DNA from: Callorhinchus milii
Taxonomy: Eukaryota
NCBI RefSeq assembly: GCF_018977255.1
Contig: NW_024704742.1
Coordinates: forward strand, 76,758,001-76,822,000
DNA length: 64,000 nt
Reading direction: 5' to 3'
The position numbers and the translations under genes are program-made. Each line of letters opens with the position of its first letter. The first letter of the stretch is position 1. Under the pieces are notes generated by a model that saw only the letters and a list, made by a program, of their open reading frames with translations, was not told the origin of the DNA and did no database searches. Below are positions 34,091 to 60,517 of this stretch, piece after piece.

Positions 34091-34139
34091 CTCCCGGGCA
34101 AAGTGGCTACAGTGCAGATAGGGTGCACGTCAAGGATAA

Positions 34140-34362
34140 AAGCCCGAGTCCTCTCCACACCGGGCAGGGAAGGGTCGGGCAGGGTCCGGGCCGGGTAGGG
34201 CCGGGCAGGGCAGGGCAGGGCCGGGCCGGGCAGGGCCGGGTAGGGCCGGGCAGGGCAGGGCAGGGCCGGGCCGGGCAGGGCCGGGTAGGGCCGGGCAGGG
34301 CCGGGCCGGGCAGGGCCAGGCAGGGCAGGGCAGGGCAGGGCCGGGCAGGGCAGGGTCCGGGC
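34140..34362 (+). repeat. GGGCA/GGGCC/GGGTA pentamer tandem repeat
   Basis: Directly visible; consecutive G3 runs. Confidence 0.95.
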
Positions 34363-34449
34363 TAAGCGCCTGCAGAGCAGTCACCTCACCGACCCCGAGT
34401 TAATTTCATCAACAGCAGTGGAGCCCAACACCCACCCACCCCCCCCCCG

Positions 34450-36285: not shown

Positions 36286-36319
36286 CTGACTGCAGCAGAG
36301 ACACAGACACACACACGCC

Positions 36320-36391
36320 ATGGCCCGAGAGTATAAAGCCGGGGAGCTGATTTTCGCCAAGATGAAGGGTTACCCTCACTGGCCAGCCCGG
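36320..36391 (+). CDS. PSIP1: PSIP1/LEDGF coding exon 1, PWWP domain ([24 protein letters not shown])
   Basis: Kozak GCCATGG, GTGAGT donor, HDGF-family PHWP motif. Confidence 0.96.
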
Positions 36392-36394
36392 GTG

Positions 36395-36476
36395 AGTGAG
36401 AGAGAGAGAGAGAGAGAGAGGGAGGGAGGGAGGGTGAGGTGTGGGGGTGTGTGTGTGTGTGTGTGGGGTGGGGGGG
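36395..36476 (+). repeat. (GA)n, (GGGA)n and (GT)n microsatellites at the start of the PSIP1 intron
   Basis: Directly visible. Confidence 0.9.
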
Positions 36477-39400
36477 TAAGCAGAGGATGACCCCCTCTCG
36501 CTGCTGTTGGTGACAGTGGAGCAGCTCGTGTGGCACATTGTATCTCAAAGGAGTTTTGTTTTAAAGAAAAGCTTAATTGCGTTATGGAGGATCCTCCAAA
36601 ACCTCTCTCTGTGTTTACCTCCTGCTCTCTCTCCCCCCTTCTCTCCCCCCTTTTTCTCCCTCCCCTCCTCCCCTCCTCTACCCCCCCCACACCCCCACTT
36701 CTCTCTTTCGCCCCCTCCCTCCACACAACCAACCGTGCAAACTATCCCCTGGTGTCTGTGTTGAAGATGGTTGCAATGAAAGCTGTAAACAGTTGGGAGT
36801 TGGTGGATGAAGATTTCGTTCAATGCAAATCCAATTGGTGATTTTTTTGGGGGGTGTTTCTCCCGCGCTTTTGCCCTTTTCTCTTTCTTCTCGTTTTTCT
36901 CTTTTTCTCTCTCTCACCAGCTCCTCCTCTCCCTTCCCCCCCCCACCCCCCCTCGGTGAAATTTTTGGGTGCAAACACTGGTGCAAATGGTGTGTTTTTT
37001 GTTGTTCAGTGAAGAGGAGGAATGTTGGGATAACTTAAGTGTTTGGAAACCCCTGAAACACGTGGTGTGGTGTTACTCGCTGCCCTGAGGGTGTAAAGCT
37101 GGGGGTTGGTGGGGGGTGGGGGGGGAGAGGGTGCAAGATCCAGGGGCCCTGAGATAGTCAGTCCATCCATGTACATCCAGGAAAAACTAGAATCATTTGA
37201 AAACCGTGGGTCTGGTCTTTTGGGGGCAAATCCTGGTGCTATGCTGGAGGTTGTTCCAAGTTTAAAAGAGCTGGATATTGCTTTGTTTTTTTTTGTATGT
37301 TTGCAATCATATCATTCCTTTCACGTGTACAGTAGTGTTATGTGCAATATATCCATAAACTCAGCTGGTCTGGCACTGACAGTTAAACATCCCCCCCCCA
37401 TTCTTACATTATGATTATCACAATACTCTGGGGACTGGAATGCAATGTATGTTCACCTGCCAGTATGCAAAATGGTGGGTCTCTGCTCTTGTGAGTATTG
37501 TTGTTCAATACCACCATTCATAGCAGGAACTCAATAAACATGCAGCTATTATTTGCTGCAATAAATTGGGTTTCTGGTACTCACAAACATTTCTGCAACT
37601 TTCGAAACCTCACCTGCCTGTTAGGTGGTGGCTCAAATGCATTCTTTGACCTTTGCTTTTCTTCCATTATAAACAATATTGGTGCCAAAGGGAGAGATGA
37701 GCACCAGAGGGAAAAAACTGCTGCTCTGTGTACTCCCCCTCCCCCCACCTGACTGGTTTTAAAAAGTGTATGCAACAACTGTATACGCTATCTATATACA
37801 TTAAAACTCGCACAAGTCTGATCTGTATAAATTGTATAATCGTCTTAAGTCGTACATCTGCCCAAGTCCTGACAAGAGTATATATTCTATGGAAGTTCAA
37901 CTTACCTCATACTTTGTATAAATCATATTAAAGGTATTGTCCCAACTGATACGACTTGTGAAGGTCTACTGTATATCATGTGCAGTGTGGCCTGCACTTT
38001 GTAAGCCTAGCTTCCTGCCAAACGTTTTACTGGGAGAAGTGTAATAGTGATCAGTGCATACAAATCCACTGAGAGGGTGAAGGCCATTTATGTTTGTTTT
38101 GGTAAGTCGGGTGTCTGAAACATAAGGAAACTCTTCTCCATGCTTATGAGTATCCAAACTGAATTCCAGGCATCCCACCCATATGTGGAAACTCCTGTGT
38201 ATTGAAATAGAATGCACACACTGTCCCTGGAGGGATGCATCCTGGTTACCTAATTCCAGAAAGAATTAGGCACAGGTTGGCAAGAGCCAGGCTTGAGGAT
38301 GCCAGAGTATGTGTTGGAGTACTGCTCGAGTCTAACCAGCTAAAACCGAATAGCTTGCCATTCATTGAGAATGCTGCTTGGCGAGCTTTCCTGATGCTTG
38401 TCCAGCTAGGACCACTCTACGTGTTAGGACTTTGACTTGCCGAGTGGGATGACTCCCTGCCACCAGTGACTGGTCTGCCCTTCCAGCTCCTGCCGATAAG
38501 CTGTGCTGTCATCAGCAGTGCCCTGGAATACTGCAAACCCATGTGGCTCAATAACCAGATTGAGTCAACCCTCAGATTGAGTCAACCCTCAGATTGAGTT
38601 AAACCTCACAGAGGTTTAATCGATTCCAACATTCTGTTGCCTTGCATGTCACCCTAGAACCAATTCAGCTCCAAGGAGGCCCCATGTCCAATTATAGTGA
38701 ATGACTAATTTCTGAACACTGCTTTCACTCTGCTGCTGTTGCTGGTAAATTTTCCCGATCAGAACAAGATATTTACGGTACAGGTTATTTTGAAAAAAGC
38801 ACCTGTGCTGCACTGGGTGTAGGAATGTACTTCTCTAAACTTGTCAAAATGTTAATGTACTTTTTGTCAAAGTGGAACAAAATGAGTAAATTGTGATTTT
38901 TTTTGGATTGCATATATACCAGGCAATGCTGTTATAATACTATAGTGTAGCTCACTGCTGTTCTACTGATAAGTTGCACTGGAGTTGGCTTCATTCCAGC
39001 TACTTCCATGTTTGCTTGCTGTACACATGCAAGCCGGAGGGGAGGGGAGAGAGAGAAACCTTTCACCCCCTCCTCTTTCCCCCCCCAGCCAGTCTAGAAT
39101 TTTGCAGCTATTTGTCTTGGTCACAGCTCAAGTGGGTGTAGAATGAATGTTTATCATCATTATTCCTTACTGAATTCCTGGCAAAACACTCTTGTGCAGC
39201 TATGAACAATTTTATTATACTTAGCTACCTTAGCTGAAATCCTAGTGACGAACTGTATTCATTGTGATGATTTTAAACCAGCACCTCAACCGTCTGGTGA
39301 CCTTCTCTGATGGTGAGGGATTTTATACTCATTCAATGTCAGCAGCTTCCCAGGTGGGTACAGCAGATCAAAGTTGCCTCTACTTTTCCACAGTGATGTT

Positions 39401-40249
39401 CCCTATTTCCACACCCAGACCACTGATTTTATCATGAGCGTGATACCAGCTGGGCTGACACTACATTGCCATCTTGATGACCTCTGAGGACTTTACCTAA
39501 TTTGATGTAATTTTGATAAATTGCAGGATGTTGTTTGCTACAGGCCCCAAACCCTGTTAAGACTGCCCTGACTCATTTCACATAGAAACACAAGTGGCAG
39601 CATGGAAAGTTGAAACTTTCCTCTGAGCTCGATTGAGACTCTGGTCAGACAGAGGTGACTGGATTAAACCACTACCACCATGTCGTTGTATCTTTCTGTT
39701 CTAAATTGTGCAAGAGTCAGTAAATGATTGCAGTTCTTCTGTGGTGCTCTTCAAAGTATTTCTCCCCCATTTCAAACATGGCTAAGGATTTGATGGGGTG
39801 AAGCATGCTCGGAGTTTCTGAGCCTAATTGTACGAGGCAGCTGAATTCAACGCAAAGCCATAGTCATTAACCTACAGTGCAGTCAAATCATTACAGCTCC
39901 TGTTTGTTACCTTGGCTCCCTCAATGCTGGCTTCACCTTTTGCTGCTGAACAAAAAATAAGTCATCAGATTCATTCCTTTTTTTAATGAAGGGAAGTTTC
40001 ACCCCGAGTGCCTTCAAGTAGATTCTCTTGTCCTTTGGGAATGAGCTGTGAAGAGTACCTGTTGGAGAAAAATCTTGTCTCTGTAGTTGCTCCTTTTACT
40101 CTCTGTTGAGGAGTATGTAAAAAAAACAGAAGCCATCTTGTTGTCAGAGCTTTCCTGCCTCTGATTCTGCCTCTTATCAATCTCACTGGCTGCTTGCACC
40201 ATTTAACTGAGCCTGCTTGTTTCTCCCCTTCCCGCTCGGTTTCCTGTTC

Positions 40250-40720
40250 CTTGACCAAAAGGTTTTTTTTCACATCTGGAATATTGTCCACTTGTGCATC
40301 CCTGTCTCACCTCTCTGAACATGAAACCATGATCCGTGCCTTTGGTGTCTCGAGACTAGACTTCTCCAGTTCTCTCATCAGCAACCGCACTGGCTACACT
40401 TTTGAAAACTTCGGTTCATCTAAAACTTTGCAGCCCATATCTAGGCTTTGCATTCCAGGCTTCATTGCTTTCAGAATCCCAGAAGAACAATTTTAAAATG
40501 ACCTTCAAATCCCTTTAGTATGGCCCCTCCCTAATCTTCTCCAGGCCTATTCTCCTCCAGTGTCTTTTGCTCTGCTGATACCTTGTCTGCTGTTTGTTCC
40601 TCACTTGCTTGGTACTCAGCTAATATACTTTGCTCTCTGAAATGCTCTCCAAAATCCTTTCACCTTGCGTTTTTCCTTACTTTCAAACCACTTTTAAATG
40701 CCTATCTGTTTTCCATGCCT
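40250..40720 (+). mobile_element. Old L2 3' fragment
   Basis: AFGVSRLDFSSSL resembles AFITSRLNYANAL of the younger copy. Confidence 0.65.
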
Positions 40721-40940
40721 TGGTACAGCAGCCATTAATTATTATTCCTCCGTTCACTGCTCATTGCTTTCTCCTTATAGTCTCTTGTGCGATGGTCACC
40801 AGAAGTGCAAGGCATTGTTGACTCTTAATATTTATACCTGGGTCACATCAGCAAGCTTCCATTAATTTTAGCAAGGTATTGTGATCACTAATGGTTTGTA
40901 ACTCTAATGGCTTCTAACATTAACAAAATGTTTTCTTCAG

Positions 40941-41017
40941 ATTGATGACTTTGCTGATGGAGCTGTGAAATCATCCACAAATAAGTATCCCATCTTTTTC
41001 TTTGGGACTCATGAGAC
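40941..41017 (+). CDS. PSIP1: PSIP1 coding exon 2 ([26 protein letters not shown])
   Basis: TTCAG/GTGAGT boundaries, 77 nt; PWWP motif IFFFGTHET. Confidence 0.96.
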
Positions 41018-41584
41018 GTGAGTGGATCTTCCTTTGTTTTAATAACTGTTGTTCAAAACTTGTTTTTTGTTTTAAAACTGCAGTAATTTCTGGTAATGAA
41101 TAGCTGAATCTTATGAAGTTTTACCCCCCTCCTGTTACCTTTTGAGTGGCTTGATATTTTACAGACTTGTCTTATTTATGAAGGTGGTTTGCTTGATGCA
41201 GGGCATGTGGGAGAGCATTGTTGTTACAAAGTTATGTTTGCATTATTTAGAGAATGCGTCTTTAGTGCTAAATCCTAGGCGCTTGTATAGGAAAGCACTT
41301 TTCAGTGCTACCCCGCACGAAGGGTGCTGTATAGATAATAATATGATTTAAAAAATCCTTGTATTTGATGTAGCACCTTATCACATAGTTGAGACCTCTC
41401 AAAGCGCATCACAAAATGCATTGTAAAGTACATTTGGGGGCGAAATGTAGCAACCAATTGCAATTTGTTCTTGAAATGTAAAAAAGCAAGTTGTTGTTGG
41501 AAGTATGGCTCCTTGGTTCTCTGTTGTCAAGACTGGCAGATTCAGAAGTCCGTGCTTGCTTAATTTATTTATTTATTTTTTTGA

Positions 41585-41737
<153 letters not shown>

Positions 41738-43382
41738 TGAGCATTTGGAACGGGAGCAAAGCAATTGCCTACCAAAAGGCTGGCGTAAGATTTGAAATTA
41801 GCAGAGATTTTTGTCTGATGTTCAGTTTGTGTTTGAAAATGTACTAATTTGGATGAATGCCAAGCTGAGCTGGATTAATACTAGTCACTGCTGGATAAAG
41901 TAGAGCCTCAGGGAAGTCTAAATAATGATGATGGGGTGATGCTTCCTTCATCATGCCCAGCTCTGTGCAGCTCTCCATAACTCTTAGAAGAGCAACAGTA
42001 ATTTTTAGTTGTTTAAAGAATTAAAAATGTAACTACTATTTACCAGTGCAAAATAATGCAAAGTTTCATTGTATTTGTCCAATTAGGGCATTTATATCCT
42101 AACTAAGATGATGATAAAAAATTCTTCCGAGACTCAATTGAGTCAGGCAGGTTGGTCACCCATCAACGACATCTTGCAATGCTGCAGACCTGCCTGGCTT
42201 TGCCTGCAGGAGCCATGGCACTTATTTTCTTGACCTTAAAAAGGTGAAGGGCTGAGTAAACCTACTGAGATTTGAACCCAGACTACTAAGTATGGGGCAC
42301 AGCCGACTGAGCTTGTAAAGCAATTTATGAAGCTTCAAAGGATGAGAAAAACAAGTTATTGGCACACATGATAACTGAACAGTAATAATGGTTGGCTGCC
42401 CTTACTGCAGGAGATTGTCGTCAATGCCCAGCCACGTTGAACGCAGGCAAATCATTCCTGAGTAATCAGTGCAGCACAGTTTAGCTTTCTGTCATCCTAA
42501 CCAACCTCTTGCCTACATGACCACCATTGTACAAACCGAAAAACCCCAAATACAAAAGATGAACATTGAAGACATCGTGGAATTAATATCTGAAAAGAAA
42601 AGTCATGACAGACTTGAAATCCCATATGTTTTCTTGATAGAAGGAAGTGTTTAATTAGATCTCTACATTGTGAGCTTCTAACTAACTCTTGCCCAATACA
42701 TTTTATTTTAATAAACGCAGATTTAGTTTCATGCTACAGTATGACTTGATTTTATCCAGTTCATTGGGCTGAAAATGTGTACTAAATTAAGAGATTCATT
42801 ACATATTGAATGTGAATTGTCAACGTCCCCCCGTTTCCCCCCGCACAATTCTCAACGTCAGCATCCTAATGCCAGATCATGCATTATCGCTGCTTCAGCC
42901 TGCTGGGTAGCAGAGTTGCACCATCACTAACAATCAGACTAAAGCCTTAATGCCAGTAAATCGACAGCTGAGAGACAGACCCAGAAGATGTGTACGATCC
43001 GGTTCCAGGCTGTCAGTATTGAGAATAACTGCTGTATTCCAACTAATTCAAAACCCGTCTGCTGATATAATCACCCTCACTGAACTCCGTACCTCCATCA
43101 CACCAGCCCTCGCCAGACTCCAATGACTCCCTATCACAGAATGGATCGACTTCAAGATCCTCACACTCGTCTACAAATCCCATCATTGCCCAGGGTGCCT
43201 CTACTTCTCCGATCTGCTTATTCCCCACTCTGCTTCTGCTGAGCTGGCTTTGGCCTTGTTCCTCATCCACTCTGCTCCACCATTGGAGGAGAATGGTTGG
43301 CAGGGGAGAAGGGTAGAATTAAGTCAATGCTTCCTGCAGCACTGCTCAGTTTGTCACAATCTCCCACTTTGAATATTTTTAG

Positions 43383-43517
43383 GGTTTGAATAAACGTGCT
43401 CGCAAGTTGTCGACAGAAAAAGATGGTGAAGAGGTGAAGCAGGCAAGTGATTTGAACCTGGGAAAGGAGGAATTGGATGCTGGAGGTTTGCCTGAATTTG
43501 ACAAACGGAGTGATGAG
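43383..43517 (+). CDS. PSIP1: PSIP1 coding exon 4 (GLNKRARKLSTEKDGEEVKQ...DKRSDE)
   Basis: TTTTAG/GTACAG boundaries, 135 nt, open in phase 0; charged linker with low conservation. Confidence 0.8.
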
Positions 43518-46500
43518 GTACAGTTTGATACTACATGGCTATTATGGTTGCGTGTTCTTGTAACTTGATAAAGTTGCTTTCCAATCTCAGAAATCTATGG
43601 AAGTTCTGTTATAATCCCATATTGCCAAGATCTGTAGATTACGTGATGCTGAGATAATGACCAGAAAATTATCCTCCTTCCTCTCTTTCTTCCCTCCTTC
43701 CGATTATTAACTTACTTTACGTTCTACCCACACCAAATACCAACTTAGTTGAAGGGGAACAAAATACTTTTTCAAAGTTCTACTTTGGATATAGAGGGGA
43801 GAAAACCATAGTTTACTTGTAGCAAGCAATCCTTTCTGTTCTGCATTAACAATGGGATGCTTCCTCTAATCCTAGATTGCTCCATGGTATCAGAGTTGGT
43901 GGAGGAGTTGCATGGTCCCTTGAGAATCTCTACCTTGTTATAGAACAACTTTTTTGCATGAAAGAAATGCCTCAAGGCCGTATACTGAATGAGAAATTAA
44001 GTGAGTTATGGAGGCAAACACAGTGACTACTTTCACAAGCAAAGTCCTGCGAACACCAATGAGATGAATAGCCAATTAATTAGAACATTCGATGAGTGCA
44101 GAATGTAGGCTATGACACATTACATTGAGTTTTGCAGCGATAGTGAAAGGAAGTTTTAATAATTGAAGAGGGAATACAAGCCAAGATAAATGAGAGGAAA
44201 ACTCCACTTTTCTTTGAAAAATATAAAGGGGAAGGGCCCCTTTATATCCACCTGAACCACAGAACAGATGGGACTTAAATTAATGATTTGGAAATAAATA
44301 AACAATGAGCCTACATTTAATTTAGGATGTAATGTTGGCAAGTGTAGCAAGCAAATTGCTCCAGCAACATCCTGCAAATAACAATGACATGAGTAGTTAA
44401 ATTAATTGGATTTTGTTGTGTGAATTTGGAATGTTGACCGAGCAGGACACATTATATTGCCATATAAATTTACAGGAAAGTAAATGCAAATTTTAATGAT
44501 TGAAAAGGGAGGGGTGGAGGGGAGAAAGTGAGGATGCAGAAAATGACAGATTGAGAGGTGGCAGACCTCTAGTCCAGAACGGTAGCCAATATGGATTAGG
44601 TGTATTTCATGATCAGCCACAGTCTCACAGCTTCTGGTTTTCTTTTAAAGGGAAGAACACTTTAAAATTGTACTTCCTTTGCAAATGGTGAATTTTGTCT
44701 TTGACGTGGCATTAGTGCCTTTGTTTGGGTGAGATCATGGTCTCTCTTCAGCTTTCTTTGTCTCTTGGACTGGGGTGAGACCTGGAATCTTCCATGTCCA
44801 TGGGTCGGGGGAAGCCATGTTATCTCAGATGGGAGTTAATGGAATTGAGTACTTTGGATTGACCTGGGAGATGATGTGGAGTTGGCTGACTGCATAGAGG
44901 CATTGCCCCAACAAGCTATTTCCTATAACTCTAGAAGACATGAAAAGCGCTATATCAAATGCAAGGATTATTATTAACTCCTTCCAGTCAGTGATGTTGC
45001 AGGAGAAAGATCTTTTAATAATTGAAAAGGGAATGTAACATAGAAGAGTCAGGATTCATACAAGTGAAATTACGTACAAGTAAAGTACAATTTTAGAAAT
45101 GTTCTTTCCTTGTAAAAAGAATAGTATTCATCCTTGTTCCTCGAAGATGCAGACATTTCTTGAGATCAGCCAGTCTTGCTTTCCTTTAGGCCTGTCTGAA
45201 TGATTGTGATATGACTGTCATTACCCATATGCTGCTTGGAAACAGCATGTCAGGTGAAAAGTATCTGAACTCATTGCCACCTGCAAACTCAACCTTGGAG
45301 AAGCAGCTAAAGTTAACATGTTGCTCTGCTTCATTATAGGTGTCAGTATCACAAATAAATAAATCACAAAAATACAAGAAATACTCTTGGGTGGAGGAAG
45401 CAAAAGCAGAGACAAGAGGGGTATTCCCCTAACTTCTGAAACTATCTCTCTCTCTTTACCCCTCTGTCTCACCGCCTCTCTCTTTAAGTCTCTTCTTAAA
45501 ACCTACCTCTTCAAACACCCTGATATGTTTCCTACACTGTACAAATTCAAGTTGTTGCTGTGGGGAATAGTTGGAGGAGAGTGCCCATAGCAGAATGCCT
45601 ATGTGGGAAATATTGAATGCACATCAGTTGCACTTTTGATGGTCAGCTATGTGGTTTCACCTGGTTAAACTCCAGCAGTACCTGCATACTCTTGGGTTCT
45701 CCCTAAGCTACAGACACATTTCCATGTGTAGGTGGCAAACATGCAGAACTCGGGCTGATTTGGATACTGTTAAGCAGGGTTACTCTATGAGTCAAACACC
45801 CAGCTGGTTAACCAAGAAAAAAGATCTAGCGGTGTCTTGAGTGTGCAGAGTATCATTCTTCTTCATATCCACTTTGTGTACTCTGGAGTTCATGCACAAT
45901 CATTCATGTTCATTCTCTAACCCTGTAAGGGAAAAAATGTCCCTTTGCCTCCATTGCTGCTCTTTGTGGTTGAAAATTCAACCTTTGCCCCAGGTTATTC
46001 CTGCAATTCCTGTAATTGCAGGAATAACCATTTTCAGATTGTATTTTGACTGATGCATGAGGGATTTCACCCACCGGCCTAAAGCTTCGTACACAACTTC
46101 AGGGTTCATGTGAACCAAGGACCCCATTAGTTATAATATCACAGCTAACGAACAACCATTTTAGGCATTTTATTGGATACGCATAGCAGCACTGTTAATG
46201 GAAAGATTAGTATCTCATCATGTTAACCGTTTAGCTGAGGGTGAGTGTTTGTGAGCATTTTGTAACCAGATTAGTCAGACTTTATCTCATCTTGTTTTTC
46301 AGTATGAAACATAATTGCGATGCACACTGCGCCACATAAGTTTCCCCTTCCCAAATCATTCATGCACTTAAATTCTTATTGAAGCTTGTTGAATCATGCT
46401 TCCATTTATTCAGTGAGACTTGAGAGGTTGGTGTGCATTGGGTTTGCAGTAGTTTGTTAATTTTAGCATTGTGGCTCCACCAATGCACCAGTGGGTGAAA

Positions 46501-48072
46501 GCAAACGGGTACAGCATTCAGCAAAAAAGACCAGAAGGTTACGGTTATCCGATCTCAGCTAGAGGAGCAGTTGAGGTGTTACAGTTAAGATGCAGAGAAA
46601 ATTAACAAGAATTCCGACTCTTGTTATTCAAGTACCCCTTTTGGAAGACCTGCTGGTAAAAATCGGATTAGCTTAGGCTGTAATTGCACTTGGTTGAATA
46701 GCTTGCCTACACTCTCTGTTGAAGCTTATAAATTAAAACCCATTTTTGTGAGGTACTTGTGAACAACTGGGAGTTGTGGACAATATCCAAAAGAAAAAGA
46801 CAAAAGGCCTTCAGCTTTAGAGGAGAGAAATGATCATCAAAAAGGCAATGACTTGTCTCTGCACTAAATACAGGTGTAGATTATTAGCCTTGTGTGCTAA
46901 TTTCAAGACTTTAATCATTACAAATAAATTTGACATATATAAATTAATAGATAAAAAATGTTTTGCCACAGACAACTGTAGATTGCCTTGTAAAGTAGGG
47001 TATTAGGATTCTCTCTAAACCGGCTCTTATCATAGGGGGGGATTCTGATATGCTGTGGAAGGGACACACAAAAATATCATCTATACCTCTGAGGGTCTGC
47101 GAGTTCCTTGTTTTAGTTCTTGCCAGAGAAATACCCGGTGAATACCTCTCATATTTACAAAGTTATGGATGGCTGTGTCCTCTAAGGGAATTGGAGTCCG
47201 GCCACAAAATTCTGTTGTATCGGATTGTTTCTGCTCATTTGTAGCCATGTCCTTCACCAATCCTAAAGCTCCAGGTATCCATAGAAGTTTCGGATCTGGT
47301 ATCAGCTTTGAGACCATTTTCGGCAGCATAGAGCTGGCTAAAGTGACTGAAGATATTCGTGGATAAATCCAATATCAGGCAATGCTGCCATTTCAGCACA
47401 GTCACCTCTCATTTCCAGAGGAAGTGGAGTGATGCGTCTTGTGTCAGATCACACTAACCTATCACATATTTCATGTTTGAATTCACAGTGTAAATATTAA
47501 TTGTGTGATATAAAATTGTTGAATGATTCTAACTGCAGGGAAAGCTGTAATGCGAAGCAGGGTGGAATACTTAAAGCAATATTTTGCAGCCATTTTATTT
47601 TTTATTTTAGATGATATATATATTAGTTAATGTAAATTGCAGGAATAAACTTAAATTGAGTAAGAATTAAGAATGAAAGTAAAATTAAACTTAGAATGGG
47701 TCAAAATAAGAATATTGGTGTTAGTGAGCTGCTTGAGTTTTGTGATAGTATTCTGTGGAAGGGGACATATTGTGGCAGAGGCCACTTCGCAATGAGTGAC
47801 ACAAATAGTTATAATCTTCTCAAAGGCCATGCTAATCTAGTGATTACTGTATTATCTGGAGTAACTTATTCCTATCAAAATGTCAGCAGCAAAGTAGAAC
47901 TGACGTTTGCTACACCATTGTCCCTACAGGCACACTGATTTATTAGCTGATGTATGTATCTCAGTCCTTTCCTATTTATCCATATCTCTGGTGCTTTCTA
48001 TGTCGCTATGTTTTGTGTCTTCTGATATGCTTTGATTTTGTGCCGTGATGATGGTCCATTGTTGTTTAATAG

Positions 48073-48141
48073 GAGGTTGCCCCAAACAAAGTTGAGTTGG
48101 AGACCCCTAAGAAAGGTGCTAAGAGGGGACGAAAGAGAAAG
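48073..48141 (+). CDS. PSIP1: PSIP1 coding exon 5 with NLS (EVAPNKVELETPKKGAKRGRKRK)
   Basis: TAG/GTATG boundaries, 69 nt; matches LEDGF NLS region TPKAARRGRKRK. Confidence 0.92.
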
Positions 48142-49497
48142 GTATGGCATTTTTTGTTGGGCTTGCATACATACATTAAACCATGACTTACTGGACGGAC
48201 TCTGGGTACCCAGAATTTGGACCTAGCTTGAAAAAGAAAAATTCCATGGACCCGCGTGAGGCCTTCCGCTGGGCCTACTCTCCTATCATGTGCCCTGCCT
48301 CGCCGTGCTTACTGGTTTTCAGTGACCAGGGATAATCACGTTGACTCAGTTTGAATCCCACGAACAGAAGGTAGCTTATCCGCTAGCTTCTGCTTACAAT
48401 ACAATACAAAATTACATTTGTATAGCAGCTTTCACATCAAGATTATGTCACAAGGCGCTGGGACGCTTATAGGATTCAAACTATTATCATACCTTTATGG
48501 GCATTTTTCAACACTGAAAAAATCCAGTAAATGTGCATACCAGCATTGTAAGGATGCAACTACACTTAGCCCGAAATTCCAGTTCACCAGACTGGATCTT
48601 ATTAATTATTCAGGTAAGGCTAATTCTTCTGTTATTGACACGAATGGATAGCTTTGTCATGTTACTTCAATAAGGGAACAACATTTGTTTGTTTCTAGTT
48701 TGTTTTCCCCATCTGTACTTGTCCCAGTGGCCACACTCTTTCATTTCACCCTTGTAAATCTCTCCCTTAATCTCGCTATTAATCCATTTTTATTTAACTT
48801 GCTCTTGATACACTTGGGTATGAGTTGTCTTGCATATATCCATTTACACTTGTTACTGGAGTTGGCATCAATATGGTTCTGGGATGGGTTAATTTTGTTA
48901 GGAGAATTTGATGCCTCCTTCCCTTTCTTCCCGATCAGCTCACTTGATGACTTATTGAGTTAAGATGCCATCCAGTGTAGCGGTAAGCCATATAGAACAG
49001 AATATAACTGATTTAATTCCCATTTTGCACATTTCTGCTCGGAAGTAGATGCGGCATTAGAATTGGCTGCAGCATCCCTGGTTTAAGAAGAGGAAATCTC
49101 AAACCAAGTTCTTAATTCCTAGTTGCTGGTCTGGCTCAGAACCTGGGTAGCACTTTCACCTCTTCAGTTAGAAAGTTGTGAGTTCAAGCCACATGTTGGG
49201 AGCTTCAGCTCATAGTCTAGTTTGACACTGGAATGCGGTGCTGGGGATGTGCTGCTTTGTCGGAGGTGCCGTTCTGTGGATCATACATCAAAGCACAGCA
49301 CTCTTTCCCGTCCCCCGTCCCCCCCGGACTACTCAGTTATTACCACCCCAAGTAGCAGGGTAATTCAGTATTGATGCTTCATTGACAAATGATAAGGTTT
49401 CTGTAAAATCCTGCAGAGGCAGCCTAATAAAACTGAATTTGGAGTTTGTTGTCAGAAATCATATAATTTTTTTGGGTCATTTTCTCCACCCACCCAG

Positions 49498-49567
49498 GTT
49501 GACAAAATAGATGCTGCTTCAGAATCAGAAGAACCAGAGAAGCAGAGTGCCAAGCAGAAAAAGCAAG
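49498..49567 (+). CDS. PSIP1: PSIP1 coding exon 6 (VDKIDAASESEEPEKQSAKQKKQ)
   Basis: CCCAG/GTAATC boundaries, 70 nt, phase 0 to 1 as expected at this position. Confidence 0.8.
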
Positions 49568-49789
49568 GTAATCGATGTTGAGGCTGAATACATTTGTCAG
49601 CTATAGTCATAGTAGAGTTTGTTAGCACTTGAACCTGTACATAGAATTGAGGCATTCTTAGAATTCTCCACTGGTTGTGTTGGACAAGTGATGTACTCCT
49701 GTGTCATTCTCGGAGGAAGAGGAAAGGCCTTTCACATGTGCATTTTCCTCGTTTTACAAATATCTGCACACATGGCAACATTGTCCTGG

Positions 49790-50190
49790 AGTCTGTGGTT
49801 AATGCCTCCATGACAGAGCATGTAGATGAAAAGAAAGGGGCTGAGGCTAGAGCCCTGAAGTGCCCTACAGGTCACCGTGCAAGGGTGGGAATCAATAGAG
49901 GAGACAAAGTGGAGGCGGTGGGTCAGGTATGAGTGTAACCAGGAGAGCGGAGGCCCACAAAGGTGAATGAGGGAGGAGAGAGTGATCATCAATGTCAAAA
50001 GCGGCAGAGAGGTCGAGGTCTCGTCGCAGAGAATGAGGGAGTGTATTGTTGGTGACTTTGACGCGAGCTGTCTCAGTCCTGTGGGTAGGGTGGAAAGCAA
50101 ACTGAAAGGGCTCAAAGCAGGGAGTGGGAGCGAAGTTGAGTTGCAACAATACGTTCCTGACTTTGAGTAGGACGGTGGGTTGGACATGGG
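49790..50190 (-). mobile_element. Decayed L2 RT fragment
   Basis: FEPFQFAFHPTHRTETA and DLSAAFD remnants. Confidence 0.8.
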
Positions 50191-51340
50191 CGGGTCATGC
50201 CTGGTCTGATTTTAAAACTATACCCTCTAGTTCTAGACCCTGTTACCACTAGAAATAATCTTTCCCTATCCACCTTAGATAGCCTCCCTTCATCTTGTAC
50301 ACCTCTATAACATAACATGTACGAGCAGGAGTAGGCCATTCGGCTCTTCGAGCCTGCCCTGCCATTCAATCGTGGCTGATCTTCTAATCTAACTCCAGCT
50401 AACAACATAACCCTGCCTTATCCCCATATCCCTTAATCCCTTTTTTGCAATAAGAAATATATCTATCCCCTCTCAGCCTTCTGAGCTCCAAAGGAAAAAA
50501 AAAACAATTTGAGTGCTAATTTCTCCACAGTTCACATTTAGTGCTTTTAAGATAATGGTTGTAAGCGCTATACAATGAGGAATTTAGGCTTCTGATCTCT
50601 GCACAGACAATCTCTGAAGTTGGAGGTGGCGATTGTAGTGAGTTGCCCTGGGGAGAATTTTGGAGGTAGGTTTGGGACATGCTCTAGTGCTTTGGGATGT
50701 AGGTGCTAAATAAGTGTTACAGTATAAGTGTCAGAGTAGAGAACTTGGTTTGGAGGCAGAAATCTTAAGGTGATGCTCTCGGGAGAGGCCACAGGAAATA
50801 TTGGAGTGGGCTCTATTATAATGCACTTGGGTCAAGGTAGAGTACACAGCTTAGATCAAAGTAGACCATATAAATGCAGGTTTTTGTTGAGTACTGAAGC
50901 CAATGAGGCTTATAGCGAAATTTAGTTTCCTGCACTTCACTTCTGACTTTTCTTTTAAAAATTATGCCAGAAAAGAAATGTGATTGTTTTCTAGCCCATA
51001 TAAAACCTATGAACACACGCCAATGTGAGACTCTTTATTGTTCAGACTAAGCTGGAAGTTTAAAGAAGTTGTGCTTCAATGTCGAGTTAAATAAGTTCTT
51101 GGGCGTCTCTTGCTGTTTTTCTGGCTCCTCTAAAGAAGTGTTCTGTCAGATTTTATGCATCTTGGGATGGGGCTTTGTAAAATTGAAAAAGCCCACCTTG
51201 ATGTATGCATTTTTTAAAATCTTGGTAGCTCTATTAAAATAATTAATTTGTTCTTGCATTAAAATGTGTTTTTCAACCTTCAAACATGTTCTTGTTTGTA
51301 ATAACCCTGCATTGCTGGTTGCTACGTTCTTGCTGTGCAG

Positions 51341-51430
51341 TTTTACCTGTGGAAACAAAGACCCCGAAACCAAGGGAAGGAGGCCTAAAATGGTGATGGT
51401 GGTGCCCCCTGCACGCTCTGGTGATGAAAG
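51341..51430 (+). CDS. PSIP1: PSIP1 coding exon 7 (AT-hook exon); frameshifted as read, or starting at the alternative acceptor 51361
   Basis: TGCAG/GTAAGC boundaries; VETKTPKPR in one frame and RPKMV in another together match human EVKIPKPRGRPKMV. Confidence 0.8.
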
Positions 51431-51658
51431 GTAAGCAGCCATCGGTCTGAAGGCCTGCCAGGCTTATATACAAATATAGTGGCCAGTCAGTCAATCTTCC
51501 AGTGTTTGAATTTACATCTGTCCTCTTCTACTTAGTACAACTATGGCTGTCTGAAGGACAGCAGCCCAAGCAACCTGAGTGAGGGCAGTCAGATTGTTCT
51601 GAATAAAATCAGACCCTTTGTTTCCGTGGGTAACTTGTTGCTCTTAAAAGGACTCTTT

Positions 51659-51966
51659 GTGGAGTCTTGTAGCTCAGTGGTTAGAGCACTCGCTTTGCAA
51701 GCGAGACACCTGAGTTCAATTCCCGGCACAGGGCGAAACCTTGGGCAAATTTCCTTACTCCACACGCCTAATAATAATCCCTCCAAAAACCCCAAACAAT
51801 AATAAATTGGTCATTTTCAATCTATGACTGTGGGACATTGTGGGTGCAATTGGCTGCCGCGTTCGCCCACAAATATACAGTCAATTCACTTTACAGTGTT
51901 TTCTGTGAAGCGCTTTGGGACGTCCTCCCGACGTGAAAAGCGCTATATCAAATGCAAGTATTATTA
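51659..51966 (+). mobile_element. Young full-length SINE
   Basis: Same head, body and tail as the other copies. Confidence 0.93.
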
Positions 51967-52466
51967 AAATAACCTGTCGCTCTTAATGCTTTGTTAAGGT
52001 TTCCATGTAATGATGCAGTCTTTTTAATAAAAAAAAATTCCCTGCTCCAGCTGATTGCTTCCTCTCCCCCAGCTGGGTGCTGTGCTCTGCCACTGTCAAG
52101 CGTTCTGGGTGGCTTCCCTGCTGAGGGCCACTATATAAATACAAGTTGTTGCCATTGCGTCTATAGAGTGAATAAATGCTGTCTTACTGGCGGGCTGGAG
52201 AATCTGGACCAGGCTGTAGATGGGTGGAACCTCAGAATTGTGATCAGCCCGCACCATCTGTGCACAGCATCTCTCTCAGACTCTGGCCAGAGTGATGTAA
52301 TGCAATAAAAATTGCATGCAAGCTGTTTGACAAACTGATGAACAGTTCCTTTGCTGCTGATCTCAAACGAAAATGTGCAGCCGCATTTAACAGCTAGATA
52401 GTTCTAACGGTTTTGTCAAAACGGCCAGCAAACCTGACCCGATTGCTGTTTTGTGTGCACCACCAG

Positions 52467-52704
52467 TGAGAGTGGCAGGGAAGACAAAGCTGAAGAGAAG
52501 AAAGCGCCAGAGGAAAAACGGAAGAAGCAACCAGAACAGAAGAAAGTGAAGGAAGAAGAAGAAAAGAAAGAGAAGAAAGGTGAGAAACTGAAAAGAGAAC
52601 CAGCTAAAAAGGAACCGAAGAAGGACGTTGAACCCAAGCGGAGGAGGAATGCTAAAGCCAAGTCATCTTCAGAATCTGATGGGGAGGAACCTGAAGATGA
52701 TGAC
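52467..52704 (+). CDS. PSIP1: PSIP1 coding exon 8, Lys/Glu-rich (ESGREDKAEEKK...KKDVEPKRRRNAKAKSSSESDGEEPEDDD)
   Basis: CAG/GTGAGT boundaries, 238 nt, phase 2 to 0; resembles KKEVESKRKNLAK..SDSEEEGDD. Confidence 0.92.
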
Positions 52705-54009
52705 GTGAGTACAATTTAAATAAAGTGCATGAGGAAGCATTTACATGGACTGTACAGCACCGAAATAGGCCATTTGGCCCTATGTAACACTGCCAGTGTT
52801 TATACTCCGCATAAGCCTTTGCCCCTCCTATTCTTCTCACATTTAGCCCTCTATTTCCTTCTCCCTTGTGAATGCATCGACTTTCCTCTCAAATACATTG
52901 ATGTTTTCTGCTTTGGCAAATTCCACGGTTTCACTGACCTCTGTTCCATCTAAACCGCTTTTTGAATCTGCTTGTGCCTATCAAGTATTTATGCCCCATT
53001 TCTCACCAAGTGCTGCTGAGGAACTTCAGCTTCTCTTTCTTTTCCCCGTTCCCCCACAGCAGAAGGGTATTGAGCTCATCTTGCCTATGTCCCACTCACT
53101 CAACTGGAGTTTTCCACTCTAATCCCATTTCCTTGCTCTTCCCCATTAGATCTTCATTCTTTAGGTCTTTTGTAATTGCTTTTTAAATGTTTAAATAACC
53201 TGGCTGAATGGCCACCTGGTGTTCCTTCGCTTCTAAATATAGTAATCGTTGCATATGATACAGCGCCTTATATCACTGAGACATCTCAAAGCGCTTCACA
53301 GGATATACTGTAACGTGGTGTAACTGGGTATGTTGTGGGCGAACACCCCCATGCTTTCAAAGGTGTAAATAAAAAGTTAATAATCTATATCACTGTTTGA
53401 AGTTGTTGTCATGTGGGGGGTTGAAAATTGCCATGAGAGCCTGTAATTGTAGGTAAACAGAACTTTTATCATGAAGTATCTTGTTCAGCAGACTGCTCAG
53501 TATTATTTATTTTTCTATAGCTCTGCCTTCTAATTGTTTCTTTTTCTTTTTTACTTGTTTATAAAATCCTTTTTTTTACCTGCCAGTATTGCCTGATTTG
53601 GCTTTTTTCATTACCACTTTTTCTTTGTTCTATTTTCTATACTACCTTTGCATTATCTCCAAATAAAATTGGTCATGCAATTTCAAGGCTGTTTGTTGAT
53701 ATTGTTGTGTGCAAATTGGATGCTAGTTAGACTTTGAATAAGAGTTGCTAAATTTTACAAAAAAAACATGTGCAGCACTTTAAGACATGTTGGCGTAATG
53801 GATGCTGTATGAAATGCAATGATTGTATATTTGTTGCCGAACCTTTTCTACATTTTTTTTCTCAATTTCTTTATTCATCCAAGGAAGACCAGTTTTTGAT
53901 TAGCCCCTTTACGTTTTGTGGGAATATGTTTAGTTTGCACTTAACCATCCTAATTTTTTAAATTTCCCACTTCCTGACTTGCCAACTTTTCTGCCTATGG
54001 TTTATCTAA

Positions 54010-54375
54010 TTCCTAGATTGATTTCAAGATCCATACACGTGTACAAATCACTTAATACCCTGGTACCTTCCTGTCTCTCAGCTGTTTGGTCCCCACTCCA
54101 CTACCTGCCACCTTTGCTCAGCTGACTCCAGCCTCCTGCACTTTCCTCGTCTCTCTGCTCTACCATAAGCAGCTGTGCTTTCAGCCACTACGCCCGGTGC
54201 TCTGCTTCAATCCCTCTGCCTTGCCTCCTTCCCCGTCTTCAGATCACAGCTGAAGACTTTCTTCTTTGACTGTACCTAGGGTAATTTCTCCCTGGCTTAG
54301 TGTCGTGCTCCGCCACTGTTAAGCACTCCGACATTAACCTGCGTGAAGGGCGCTACATGGATATAAGTTGTTGTT
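54010..54375 (+). mobile_element. Old L2 3' fragment (related fragments at ~14690-15075 -, 32020-32760 +, 43040-43290 +, 55500-55730 +)
   Basis: ttcaagatcc...ctgactccagcctcctgcac...gtgaagggcgcta similarity to the L2 3' end. Confidence 0.7.
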
Positions 54376-54581
54376 TTTCATCTGCATGAAATGTTTTTCT
54401 CCAGTACGGTAGCTTTTATCTTTAACAGTTTGTCTCCTTCTCTTCCCTTTTAAAAGCGTATTTAGTTACGTTGTGGTTGCTGTTTGCTAAATACTCCTCT
54501 TCCCTTACATTTCTTACCATCCCTATCGTTTTTTTCCTCTTCCACCCCAAAAAAACAAATAATATTGCTTTCTATTGAAAG

Positions 54582-54703
54582 GAAGAGGAGAGGAGCAAGA
54601 AAACCAAGTGGAATGCTGCCAACAGGCGCAATCTAATGAAAAAGCAAAATGAGAAGGACCAAGACGAAAAGCTACGCAAAATGGAGGAGAACAAAGATGA
54701 ACA
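54582..54703 (+). CDS. PSIP1: PSIP1 coding exon 9 (EEERSKKTKWNAANRRNLMKKQNEK...DEQ)
   Basis: AAG/GTATGT boundaries, 122 nt; resembles TAHRRNMLKGQHEK. Confidence 0.88.
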
Positions 54704-55328
54704 GTATGTACTGTCTTCTGCTCATTAACGTTTATCTGCGTGTTAGTCAAGTTATGCCTGTGTTGGGTAATGCAGCCTCTGTTGCTGCCCTCTTGGGTCA
54801 GATGTAGCTAACTACAAAATGCAGCGTGCACTTCAGTCTTGCATTTAAGATGTCTTAACTGCCAATCAGAGAGCAGCACTCTGACTGCAAGCAGTTTATT
54901 TCCTTCCCACTCACTCCCACACTTGTTACCCTTATGGTCTCTTTCCTGAGATACACGCCAAGTCAAAATTAAGGCTTTAAGTTGTGGGCTCCTGGAAACT
55001 AGGTTTATGACTGACCAACTTAGTTCATGTGTGGTTATTGAAGCCAACAGAGATTGTCATACTGCTCGGTTAGTCGGTCTTGAAACTGTGGGACTAGTGT
55101 GTACAAATATAAATTCACACCAGAACTGTGCACTGTTGCCACTTTTTTTGCAGACTGAAATAAAAACTAATAAGTTCTAAATGAGGGAATTTGGGGCTGC
55201 GGTGATCCTGTCTTCACTACAGTACTTTGAGATTACGTGGAGATGGTGCCACTTTTGCTGCTTTTTTTTTCCTCTTGTGTCCAATTATAAGAAATTGTTA
55301 CACCACTTTGGGTCATACTTTTGTCTAG

Positions 55329-55399
55329 GCAACCCAAAGAGGATAAAGAAGGAAAGATAGATGAAAAGCTGAACTTCAAGAAAATAGAAAAGAAAAGAG
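55329..55399 (+). CDS. PSIP1: PSIP1 coding exon 10 (QPKEDKEGKIDEKLNFKKIEKKR)
   Basis: CTAG/GTTGG boundaries, 71 nt, phase 2 to 1; resembles KKVEKKR. Confidence 0.88.
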
Positions 55400-55813
55400 G
55401 TTGGACAACTTCTGTTTTTATGCCCTGGCTCCTCCCTACCTCTCTTCCTTGTTTACACCCCACTCCCCTATCCTTCCCCTTTGCTCCAGCCTCCTTCACT
55501 ACCCTTGTCCTCTCTACTTCACCATGCTTTCAGCACTGCCCTGAGACTTTGAAACACGGCCTCAATCCCTCCACCTTACTCCCCCCCCCATCCGTCTTCA
55601 GATCTAGCTGAAGATCTTCTTCTTCGACCGTGTCTATGGTCATCTCTCCCCAGCTCGGCGTCAAGCTCCGCCACCGTTAAGCGCTCCATGATGTTACCCT
55701 GTGTGAAGGGCGCGATATAAAAGCAAGTTCATGTTTTTTTTTGCAAGTTATTACCTTGCTGTAAAATGACAATGTTACAATTTATTTAACCAGTCATTGT
55801 TTTACTTTTGCAG

Positions 55814-55884
55814 AAATGTCAATGGAATCCAGGCTTCATAAGTTGCATGGGGAAATTAAACTTTCGCTAAAGATTGACAAACCT
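55814..55884 (+). CDS. PSIP1: PSIP1 coding exon 11, IBD (EMSMESRLHKLHGEIKLSLKIDKP)
   Basis: GCAG/GTGAGT boundaries, 71 nt; resembles [20 protein letters not shown]. Confidence 0.95.
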
Positions 55885-56887
55885 GTGAGTATGCTATGCA
55901 CTGATGTAGTTTGGCGCGAAGTTGATGCTTCCCATGTATTTTTAATATTGAAGAAAGATCCAAATTTCTATTAAAGTAATTGTGGAGACTTAATTCTCCA
56001 GCAAAGGAAATGGTTGATAACTTGATCTGATCGATTTGAGTTATCTTAATAGGTTTGTTTGAACCTCCTTTATTTTCAAAAATAAGCAATCTCCAGACTG
56101 TGCGTGATCAAACTGGATAGATATTAAATCAGTATATTTTCTTTATATAAAGCATTTCATAGCACAGTGTTTGATATCAGAAAGGGAATATTATTAAAAG
56201 TAGATACAAGGGTAAGCTTTCATTTTCCATAGTGTTGCATATGTTTCCAGATTTTCATTTTCTGAATAGTAAAATGTTGGCTTCTAGTTTCAGAATTCAT
56301 TTTGCTTTCACACAATGTTCAGTTGAAAAGATAGCTCTGGTCAGTTTGAACTTAGGCCTCAATCAATGCTGGTGGCCCCAATTCTAGAATTGTAAATCTT
56401 TCCACAGGTCCTTTCCAGTGATTGACCCCCCCCCCCCCCCCATGAACTGGGTTTGTGTTGTCTCCTGATCTTTCTGAGAGGTTGTCTACTTGCCAATGGA
56501 GGCTTAAATGCTCATCCTGGTTGACATCCTCACATAAGTCTCTGGATAGTTATTGGCTTGAGAAAGCTTCAAATCCAATGGCCACAATCAATGCGAACCC
56601 TCAAATCCTTTATAACCAAGATAGTAGATCCAATTCAGGCTCGGGTTGCTCCAATTGTGCGTTGTAGTTTGTACATGTGTATATTTAATGTACATACTAA
56701 GTAAATAACAGGATTCACAACCCCATTGGGCTATGAATAAACTTACGATGGAATTTATTTTATGTGTTTCTTGTGTAATAACCATGGAGAAAATGTGTGA
56801 TTTTTATTGTTCCATTCAGCAATTAAGTGCTTTTAACTCTAGATGCAAAACTGATGCAGTATCTTTCTCTTTGTGTTTATTTTGCAG

Positions 56888-56989
56888 GATGTGAAGAAGT
56901 GTATTGAAGCCTTAGATGAACTTGCATCTCTCCAAGTTACCCCACAACACCTGCAGAAACATAGTGAACTGATTGCAACGCTGAAAAAG
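56888..56989 (+). CDS. PSIP1: PSIP1 coding exon 12, IBD ([34 protein letters not shown])
   Basis: GCAG/GTTAG boundaries, 102 nt; [14 protein letters not shown] as in LEDGF. Confidence 0.96.
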
Positions 56990-57658
56990 GTTAGGTTTGA
57001 CAAGAAGTTACTTAAGTGAGATATTAAAATGTCTTGGTATTTTAGTTTCTCCTTTTCTCTCTGGTGACCAAATTAATATTGGTGTACAATTCCACAGTAT
57101 GTTTATGCAAGTGGTCATGTGTGAGGCTGAACTGTAAATAGAATATTTGACTGTAGGACAGAACCTGTACTCTGACATTCTCTGTATTTGCACCTGCAAA
57201 GAGGTTAAACCAAGCCAGGAGTTGGAATCCTGATCACTGGTTTGGGTTCCCATCCTCCAGGAGTTGCTGAGAGCAGGTATAATGTTTTCCTAGCTGGATC
57301 AGGCTAATTTACAGAGTCCAAAAATTGAGCGTGAGACTATGTGGCTCGTTTTCAAATCACACTACATTCTCTTTTCGAATGGTGCCGTGGGATCTTTGAC
57401 TTCCATCTGAACAAATAGAGAGGATTTCAATTTAACATCTCATCCATAGGACAGCACCTCCAAACATGCAGCCCCCCCCTCTGCACTGAATTTAATATCA
57501 GTTCAGACTCGGTATCAGTTCAAAGTACTAACTCAGGGCTTGAACCCACAACAATCTGACCCTAAGCAAGAGTCCTACTGACTGAGCCACTGTGACCAGG
57601 AAGTGTCGAAACTACAAAAGACAGAATGGCCATTTGGGTTTGTTTCGAAGTATGACCA

Positions 57659-57981
57659 GTAATAATAATAATCCTTGCATTTGATATAGCGCTTTTCACG
57701 TCGGGAGGACGTCCCAAAGCGCTTCACAGAACACACTGTAAAGTGAATTGACTGTATATTTGTGGGCGAAGAGGGCAGCCAATTGCGCACAGCAATGTCC
57801 CACAAACCGTCGCAGATTGAAAATGACCAATTTATTATTGTTTTGGGGTTTTTTGGAGGGATTATTATTAGGCTCTGTGTGGAGTAAGGAAACTTGCCCA
57901 AGGTTTCGCCCTGCCTGGAATTGAACTCAGGTCTCTCGCTTGCAAAGCGAGTGCTCTAACCACTGAGCTACAGGACTCCAC
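57659..57981 (-). mobile_element. Young full-length SINE
   Basis: Same head, body and tail as the other copies. Confidence 0.93.
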
Positions 57982-58652
57982 AGTAGTTCTTGTTCTATCT
58001 TCCAGTGGTGGGAGATCCTGGAGTGTTACCCTTGACTAAGTCCAAATGTGAGAATTGAACCCCTCAGACACTGAGGCGACAGTGCTACCAACTGAGCTAG
58101 GCCGATGCCTTTTATTTACTGAGCCACTTTTTGTGGGTGTTTACTGAGTAAATATGCAGAAAAGTAGGCGGGCTAAATTGAATCATACTTATTCTATTAG
58201 ATTCCACCTATTTAAAGACAACTTTTTTTTTCTGTGTTGCGCCTACATGGGATGAGATGAATTTATTCTTGTATGTTTGGCATAAACAGCTGAAAGTAGA
58301 AGTAACTAACTGTCGAAGCAGAATTGTCTGGTTCTGACCTGATTGTGTGAGGGCCTGGTTTCTATTGAAGCAATAATTAATAACAGAACGGAGAATGGAG
58401 TGCAAAATTCTTAACAGAAATCATCACGTACATTAAATCTCGACGCTGGAAGTTGCTCGTAGAATGGAAAGATTTGAGGGCAAACTTGCAAAAACAGGAT
58501 CCTCATTGCAGAATGCATATGCCATGCGTTAACTATGTTTAAACTTGTCAAGCACTGAGGACACGGGGAGGAGAAGCAGTGTGTGAAGCTTCAATAATGT
58601 TCTGCATCTGCAAAATGTTCAGTTTCAATTCACTCATCTCCTCTCACTACAG

Positions 58653-58884
58653 ATTCGACACTACAAAGCCAGTCAGGATATCATGTTCAAGGCGGATATG
58701 ATCTACAACAAATTCAAATCTATGTTCTTGGTTGGAGAAGGTGATTCAGTGATCACGCAAGTACTCAATAAATCTCTGGCGGAACAACGACAGCATGAAG
58801 AGGCGGTCCGAGCTCGAGAACAAGAAAGAAAGGCCGATTTGATGGAGACTAACAAGAAAGATAATGCGGAGGAACAAGCGTCAG
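58653..58884 (+). CDS. PSIP1: PSIP1 coding exon 13 (IRHYKASQDIMFKADMIYNKFKSMFLVGEGDSVITQVLNKSLAEQRQHEEA...)
   Basis: ACAG/GTAGG boundaries, 232 nt; MFLVGEGDSVITQVLNKSLAEQRQHEEA is diagnostic of PSIP1. Confidence 0.97.
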
Positions 58885-59469
58885 GTAGGGTTGCTCTTGT
58901 CTTTTCCCCTTACCCATCCGATTCTGAGTCAACTGCAACAACAAAATTACATTTGTATAGCGCCTTTCACGTTGGGAGGACGTCTCAAAGCGCTGGACAG
59001 ACAGTTATGGACCTGAGCTGGGGGAGCTTTTTTTTTAAAAAAATGCAGTTCTTTGAATTAAAATGCTCTTTCCCAACTTCCTCTCCCCACACAGTTCTGA
59101 TGACATTTTGTTGGGAATAACATTCATCCCTCTGCAGCAATTGGGCATATTGATTAGTACTAGAAGTTATTCATAATTGGACTGTGATCGCACACCTTCA
59201 CGTGAGGGGAGGATATTGCTGGTAGTTGTTGGCCACATCTCTGGTCTCTGGTTTTCATAATAAGGAATTGTTGCTAGCTGCTTTGGGCATTGATGTACCT
59301 AAGTTTAGCTATGGAACTGTTTTACTACATTGTGCATTGTCTTTGTAAGTTTTATTTTTAAAAAAAAAACTTTGTAATTTGTAGTTGTGTGCAAAACCAA
59401 AATGATTTAAGTTCTGGAGGAATCCCACTGATGCGACTTGTAACAATGGGCTTTGTGTTTTACTATCAG

Positions 59470-59608
59470 ACCCTCAGGCAGTGAATGGTGAAGTCGTATC
59501 CCAAGAGGCAGAGAACGGGCACTCGTTGAAAGGAGTCGAGGGTCAGCAGGTGGCTGGAGATGAGAAGAAGAAGAGGGGCCAGGACGGGCTACAGTCAGCA
59601 CAAAATAG
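59470..59608 (+). CDS. PSIP1: PSIP1 coding exon 14 (DPQAVNGEVVSQEAENGH...QSAQNR)
   Basis: TCAG/GTGAGT boundaries, 139 nt, phase 1 to 2, open frame. Confidence 0.85.
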
Positions 59609-60420
59609 GTGAGTATGCTGAGGGGAAACGACTGAGCTTCACCACAAGGAATTTGCCTACGTAGATCTTCAGTTTCTTTGCTTTCATGCCAGTTGCATGG
59701 ACCGGATGGGAACCATTCCCATCTCGTATCTTGTCCACAGCCCTTTATAAATCAGCATGTTAGCTGATGAGCCTTGTGTACAGGGATACATAGGGATGCT
59801 CACCTGTACTTTGAAGGACGTTGTCCTGGGCATTTGTAGGTTTAACCTGCACAGAAGCCTCATCAAAATCATGAGGGCAAGTTAACCGTGAGGAATATCA
59901 GGACTCGGCAAATGAATACCTTTCCACTCTTAATATAATATTGAATGTAATTCATATATATATATATATCAGTTTGGCCTAGAATGGCCAGTGGGCTCAG
60001 TGCATTGCAGTCCTGTTTGTAAAACACTGGCATAAATTGTGTTTTCTGTTCAGGTGCTATCTTGCAAACTTCTGCAATATGCCAAGTCCAGCTTCAGGTC
60101 TAACCTGTTGGACCACTTCAGTTCTCTGAATTGTCTTTAGATATTCAAATATTCCAGATGAGAAATCATCTTTACCAGAGAGTGTTTGCAGTGGCAAGAT
60201 GAGCAATTTTACCTAGTTAAGCTCCAGCGTTACCCCCATTGCACATTCTGGAGTCAGTAGTTTGATAACCTTAAATATGGTAATGGCTTTCAGCGAGCAC
60301 CGACACCCAGCTGAAATGCACACTTTTCAGTATTCCATCCGTTTATGGTAAAACATCCAATCCTTGATCTTAAAGTAGTGTCTGTGACATGACGTGATGT
60401 GGATATTTTGTTCACTTTAG

Positions 60421-60517
60421 GGAGCTGGATCTACCAGATTCCTCACAATCAGCAAAGCAGCTAGCAGCTGAAGCTGAAGTCAGTCAAACAGCGAGGGCAG
60501 CAGCCACTGAACACTGA
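60421..60517 (+). CDS. PSIP1: PSIP1 last coding exon (ELDLPDSSQSAKQLAAEAEVSQTARAAATEH*)
   Basis: TTTAG acceptor, phase-compatible, TGA at 60515-60517, followed by U-rich 3'UTR-like sequence. Confidence 0.78.

Follow-up and report, generated by a model that had tools for sequence, protein, structure and literature searches.

The window analysed here, the whole stretch of 64,000 nucleotides of the Callorhinchus milii genome (assembly GCF_018977255.1, contig NW_024704742.1, positions 76,758,001 to 76,822,000), contains the PSIP1 gene (LEDGF/p75) on the plus strand (Table 1). The C. milii protein record V9KFG8 (UniRef100_V9KFG8, 574 amino acids), which we take to be derived from mRNA, maps exactly onto the 15 exons of the window with a single frame switch, at 51375 in exon 7; the remaining 14 exons were mapped without any further frame switch, in line with a sequence-only reading of this DNA, which had described all downstream exons as intact. 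The N-terminal PWWP domain (PF00855, residues 8-87 of V9KFG8) was scored at 57.8 bits against a cut-off of 25.6, and the C-terminal integrase-binding (LEDGF) domain (PF11467, residues 366-466) at 112.9 bits against 26.3. With both domains above cut-off and a basic RGRKRK stretch present, the C. milii protein resembles vertebrate PSIP1/LEDGF-p75. Its record is 71-78% identical to 12 PSIP1 orthologues from sharks and rays, and the peptide of coding exon 13 (58653-58883) matches C. milii PSIP1 at 100% and shark and ray PSIP1 at 77-85%. The gene is an ordinary PSIP1, and there is little doubt that it encodes an ordinary 574-residue protein of the LEDGF/p75 type with PWWP and integrase-binding domains. 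In passages of work on the human protein, chromatin binding of LEDGF/p75 is ascribed to the PWWP domain, the signal for nuclear localization (NLS) and a pair of AT-hook motifs, and p52 is described as a short isoform that arises by alternative splicing and lacks the integrase-binding domain (PMC2275779).

A search of the assembly returned one PSIP1 locus; for loci on C21 and C26 the match reaches no more than 59-76%, and these are taken, from this similarity, to be putative paralogues. The 171-base stretch around exon 7 has one match genome-wide. A second PSIP1 copy or a haplotig carrying an intact exon was rejected on the basis of this one match and the one locus. Since PSIP1 is present as a single locus, there is no spare copy that would relax selection on it.

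Several other features were observed in the window. A block of GC-rich simple repeats, at about 34000-36300, is closely followed by the true ATG exon of PSIP1 (36320-36391). Upstream of PSIP1, exons of a STAP-family adaptor gene lie on the minus strand at 3787-3990 and 16950-17096: an SH2 piece has its best matches in STAP1 and STAP2, at E values between about 5e-7 and 9e-7, and falls just under the Pfam SH2 cut-off, and the best match of a second piece is the STAP1 entry 1x1f (E 4e-4). Some repeats (e.g. 51660-51970) presumably resemble a tRNA-derived SINE, and others (e.g. 7536-8516, minus strand) are presumably fragments of LINE reverse transcriptase. In intron 6, a high-copy interspersed repeat occupies 50307-50467, with a summed depth above 200,000 in sequencing run X2. 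The true acceptor of exon 9 (54579-54581) is an AAG and has the lowest score among the 14 true acceptors of the gene; compared with most sharks, the exon 9 junction of C. milii carries one or two additional acidic residues.

Table 1. Features of the PSIP1 locus around coding exon 7 (window coordinates)
Feature	Position	Strand	Remarks
PSIP1 (LEDGF/p75) coding span	36320..60517	+	15 coding exons, ATG to TGA; from exon map to C. milii V9KFG8, Pfam and genome search
Coding exon 6	49498..49567	+	70 nt, phase 0 to 1; donor joined to 51341 in spliced contig
True 3' splice site of exon 7 (CAG)	51338..51340	+	Joined to 49567 in run X13 with GT..AG ends (depth 190)
Coding exon 7	51341..51430	+	90 nt as assembled, 91 nt in every covering run; phase 1 to 2; encodes the basic PRGRRP motif
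AAG proposed as cryptic acceptor	51358..51360	+	Lysine codon within the exon; use not seen
Site of the missing A (behind 51374)	51374..51375	+	Insertion in X1, X2 and X13; inside the purine-only run 51372-51383
GTGATG, cryptic donor implied by XP_042201292.1	51393..51398	+	Unused in spliced contig; 561/561 splice-model identity
Premature TGA	51394..51396	+	In frame in the uncorrected assembly only
Coding exon 8	52467..52704	+	Requires phase 2; spliced contig continues from 51430 into its first 14 letters

Exon 7 is bounded by a TGCAG acceptor, the last G of which is at 51340, and by a GTAAGC donor at 51431. It had been pointed out from the sequence that the neighbouring exons leave phase 1 and require phase 2, that the 90 nt between these splice sites run into a premature stop, and that the homology switches frame within the exon. 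All of this was confirmed in the window: read in phase 1, the uncorrected exon ends in ...PKPREGGLKW followed by TGA, giving a product of 205 amino acids, and homology to known proteins changes frame at about 51375. Other ways of accommodating the exon were tried and rejected. A crude scan of 49568-51340 for a missed phase-changing exon gave no convincing candidate, and the whole 1773-nt intron is skipped in a spliced contig described below; exon 6 runs into stops in either other phase; skipping of exon 7 leads to a truncated product of 214 amino acids.

The size of the discrepancy depends on the protein with which the exon is compared. The sequence-only reading had counted 8 nt where 6 would be expected, with the mammalian PRGRP as its yardstick, and in this form the count does not hold. 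The motif KPRGRRP was found in 25 of 26 cartilaginous-fish records (25 named ones plus the unnamed P0016, grouped by similarity), the exception being a model equal to the uncorrected window. Since cartilaginous fish carry PRGRRP, 9 nt are expected at this position, 8 are present and the window is one short. The canonical AT-hook core is given as PRGRP or GRP in passages of PMC11354804; an RGRP core occurs in none of the 26 records, and for none of them does the exon 7 motif qualify as a canonical AT-hook core. Most tetrapod PSIP1 records have two RGRP cores, whereas all cartilaginous fish examined, and not C. milii alone, lack the first and have PRGRRP in place of the second. Of a further 76 records with at least 400 amino acids, 38 are without RGRP (the named ones being ray-finned fish), 7 have one, coelacanth and lungfish included, and 31 have two, the named members of this group being tetrapods. 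This distribution hints that tandem canonical AT-hooks may have arisen stepwise in lobe-finned vertebrates. A Pfam AT-hook scan of 8 proteins gave no match, and as the mammalian control was among them the scan is uninformative. No relevant paper on AT-hook evolution in fish LEDGF was found in a literature search that was too loose to imply absence.

Independent sequence data were then compared with the assembly. Contigs from 4 of 24 listed runs were aligned to 49450-51650, and the site is covered in three of these runs, which belong to three studies, or two when X1, the possible source sample, is set aside. A word share of 0.97 was obtained for X1-X5, with X3-X5 outside the four aligned runs. 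X1 (study P1) is DNA-like and possibly the source sample, with a depth of 2.04 that lies below the warning level of 5. The contig of X2 (study P2) crosses the intron and this run is therefore genomic. X13 (study P5, RNA by guess) covers exons only and contains a GT..AG joint, and on these grounds it was judged to be spliced RNA, no run being recorded as RNA. Exon 7 is uncovered in the fourth run, X7, which has no bearing on the missing base. Each of the three covering runs has one contig at the site, and in each of them an extra A stands behind 51374 at the full depth of the contig (2.04 of 2.04 in X1, 7.56 of 7.56 in X2 and 190.1 of 190.1 in X13); the short allele of 90 nt was seen in none of the three. 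Within the same alignments, two differences from the assembly were observed in the intron, G>A at 50755 in X2 and X7 and T>G at 51092 in X7 only, which are either polymorphic sites or additional errors of the assembly.

In the sequence that carries the A, the codons over the site are AGA GGA AGG AGG CCT, which read R-G-R-R-P. When a single placeholder base was added to the window, a protein of 574 amino acids was obtained that is identical to V9KFG8 at 573 of 574 positions, the sole mismatch being the placeholder codon. Both V9KFG8 and a second C. milii record, XP_007890244.1, join the two frames at 51375 and read PRGRRPKMV. An assembly error that would give PRGRRP had been put forward in the sequence-only reading as a fourth G lost from a homopolymer. 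The error and the peptide are borne out by the extra base in the contigs; the identity of the letter is not, as an additional G in the G run was rejected because the inserted letter is an A. This A stands alone between G and GG, and its loss leaves GGG.

The splicing of exons 6 to 8 could be followed in the X13 contig, which is 699 nt long and comprises exon 5 sequence (48110-48139), exon 6, exon 7 and the beginning of exon 8. Its joint from 49567 to 51341 has GT..AG ends, and the exon is left at 51430. No joint to 51361 or from 51392 is listed, in a comparison based on one spliced contig of one RNA-like run, which rare isoforms could escape. The junction to 51361 that had been considered in the sequence-only reading was thus not found: the only entry into exon 7 in this contig is at 51341. 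The contigs show one extra base together with splicing at 51341, the combination which, according to that reading, would mark the lesion as an artefact.

The proposal that a cryptic acceptor restores the frame is arithmetically sound on the uncorrected assembly, where use of the AAG gives a 70-nt exon and a protein of 567 amino acids. On the sequence that carries the A, the same acceptor causes a frameshift and the product ends at 196 amino acids. In a crude scoring, based on an approximate weight table and usable as a rough guide only, the AAG obtained -1.6, where the 14 true acceptors lie at 2.8-11.8, and among the 1535 AGs of the gene there are 818 whose score is at least as high. After a loss of one base, a frame-restoring AG is present in the first 30 nt of 8 of the 13 internal exons (7 of 12 when exon 7 is left out). 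Chance suffices as an explanation of the cryptic acceptor.

It was concluded, with very high confidence, that the apparent frameshift is an assembly error in which one A was lost behind 51374, and that the normal exon 7 is 91 nt long. Most likely, the loss arose in the purine-only run through a slip of the consensus or of the polishing, in which a lone A between G and GG was dropped and the flanking letters were fused to GGG, an error of a kind known from long-read assemblies. A comparable case, false frameshifts caused by assembly indels, is treated in passages of PMC12007338: there, too, a one-base deletion breaks a conserved single-copy gene and misleads gene prediction, and other sequence data of the species do not show the difference. 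The cases differ in that the data described there come from small genomes and that homopolymer bases are named as the commonest class of indel error, whereas the letter lost here is a lone A in a purine-only run.

Some points count against a simple assembly error: the lost letter does not belong to a homopolymer, X1 has a depth of only 2.04, and the sequences compared are contigs. The public record XP_042201292.1 also has the out-of-frame peptide, although it is best understood as a prediction from the same faulty sequence. The first three points can equally be read in favour of a genuine 1-bp deletion for which the assembled animal was heterozygous, as a rare loss-of-function allele, with the assembly keeping the affected haplotype. 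The depth of X1 is too low for both haplotypes to be seen, and contigs, which drop rare variants, cannot show the absence of a rare or second allele. In such an animal, the mutant mRNA would have its stop at codon 206, within exon 7 of the 15 exons, which would make it a target of nonsense-mediated decay (NMD), with the normal allele of the species intact. However, the sole X1 contig over the site has the A, the short allele occurs in no aligned run, and the stretch has no further copy in the assembly. According to passages of PMC11354804, perinatal death is the fate of most mice with a Psip1 knockout, which suggests that null alleles would be rare and that a fixed null in a single-copy gene is unlikely while a rare carrier may exist. 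A heterozygous deletion was accordingly regarded as improbable. Less probable by a clear step is a private heterozygous 1-bp deletion whose transcripts partly escape NMD through the AAG at 51360 (567 amino acids) or the donor at 51393 (561 amino acids), yielding LEDGF without PRGRRP. If this were true, the deletion with its splice rescue would be a private allele and not a feature of the species.

The rescue of frameshift alleles through cryptic or alternative splice sites is a known phenomenon, as is a coupling between splice choice and NMD. The present case resembles these classes in geometry only, as the frame can be restored on paper by an AG and likewise by a GT within the exon; it differs in that the independent data contain no lesion, neither cryptic site shows a junction and both are weaker than the true sites. 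A frameshift fixed in the species and compensated by the acceptor at 51360, or coupled to NMD, had been offered by the sequence-only reading. The restored frame on the uncorrected assembly speaks for it, as does the fact that one true acceptor of PSIP1 (54581) is likewise an AAG, but the lesion is missing from all three covering runs, the spliced contig enters at 51341, the AAG scores poorly in a gene where frame-restoring AGs are common, and its use on the real sequence would itself shift the frame. Because all three runs have the A, a fixed, splice-compensated lesion is excluded as a feature of the species, and the reading was given next to no weight. The associated suggestion of acceptor choice coupled to NMD, or of a product with only PWWP and NLS, is unsupported, as no data show the 205-residue protein of that composition.

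Equally slight is the probability of a frame restoration through the cryptic donor at 51393, which would give a 52-nt exon and 561 amino acids as in the public model XP_042201292.1. The uncorrected window spliced at this GT reproduces XP_042201292.1 at 561 of 561 residues. Against its use, the X13 contig passes straight through 51393 to 51430 and into exon 8, the crude score of the site is 4.8 against 11.4 for 51431, and the motif that would be removed is kept in the 25 other cartilaginous-fish records. Its appearance in the model is best understood as the work of a gene predictor that circumvented the error.

In XP_042201292.1, PREGGLK is followed directly by exon 8, and it is this record that forms the sole exception among the 26 cartilaginous-fish records. 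Presumably, the sequence behind the model lacked the same base, and a nearby donor was picked in the prediction to keep the frame. The missing base has therefore probably reached a public annotation, whose protein falls 13 residues short and is without the conserved PRGRRP motif, apparently from the same cause. XP_007890244.1 begins with a 23-residue first exon at 21632-21700, 15 kb upstream of the true ATG exon, and lacks the start of the PWWP domain; this first exon is probably a misprediction. As its first exon differs, XP_007890244.1 may have been predicted on other sequence.

With the loss of one A taken as the explanation, the assembly needs a one-base correction at position 76809374 (G000:C1). 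Single-base frameshifts in this genome should first be checked against reads, and a frame-restoring AG within an exon is a common chance occurrence. Since the letter is present in other DNA of the species and in its spliced RNA, which encode the full-length protein, the apparent frameshift is an ordinary error and not new biology; its biological novelty is none. For comparative work on LEDGF, the 574-residue record V9KFG8 is the sequence to be used for C. milii.
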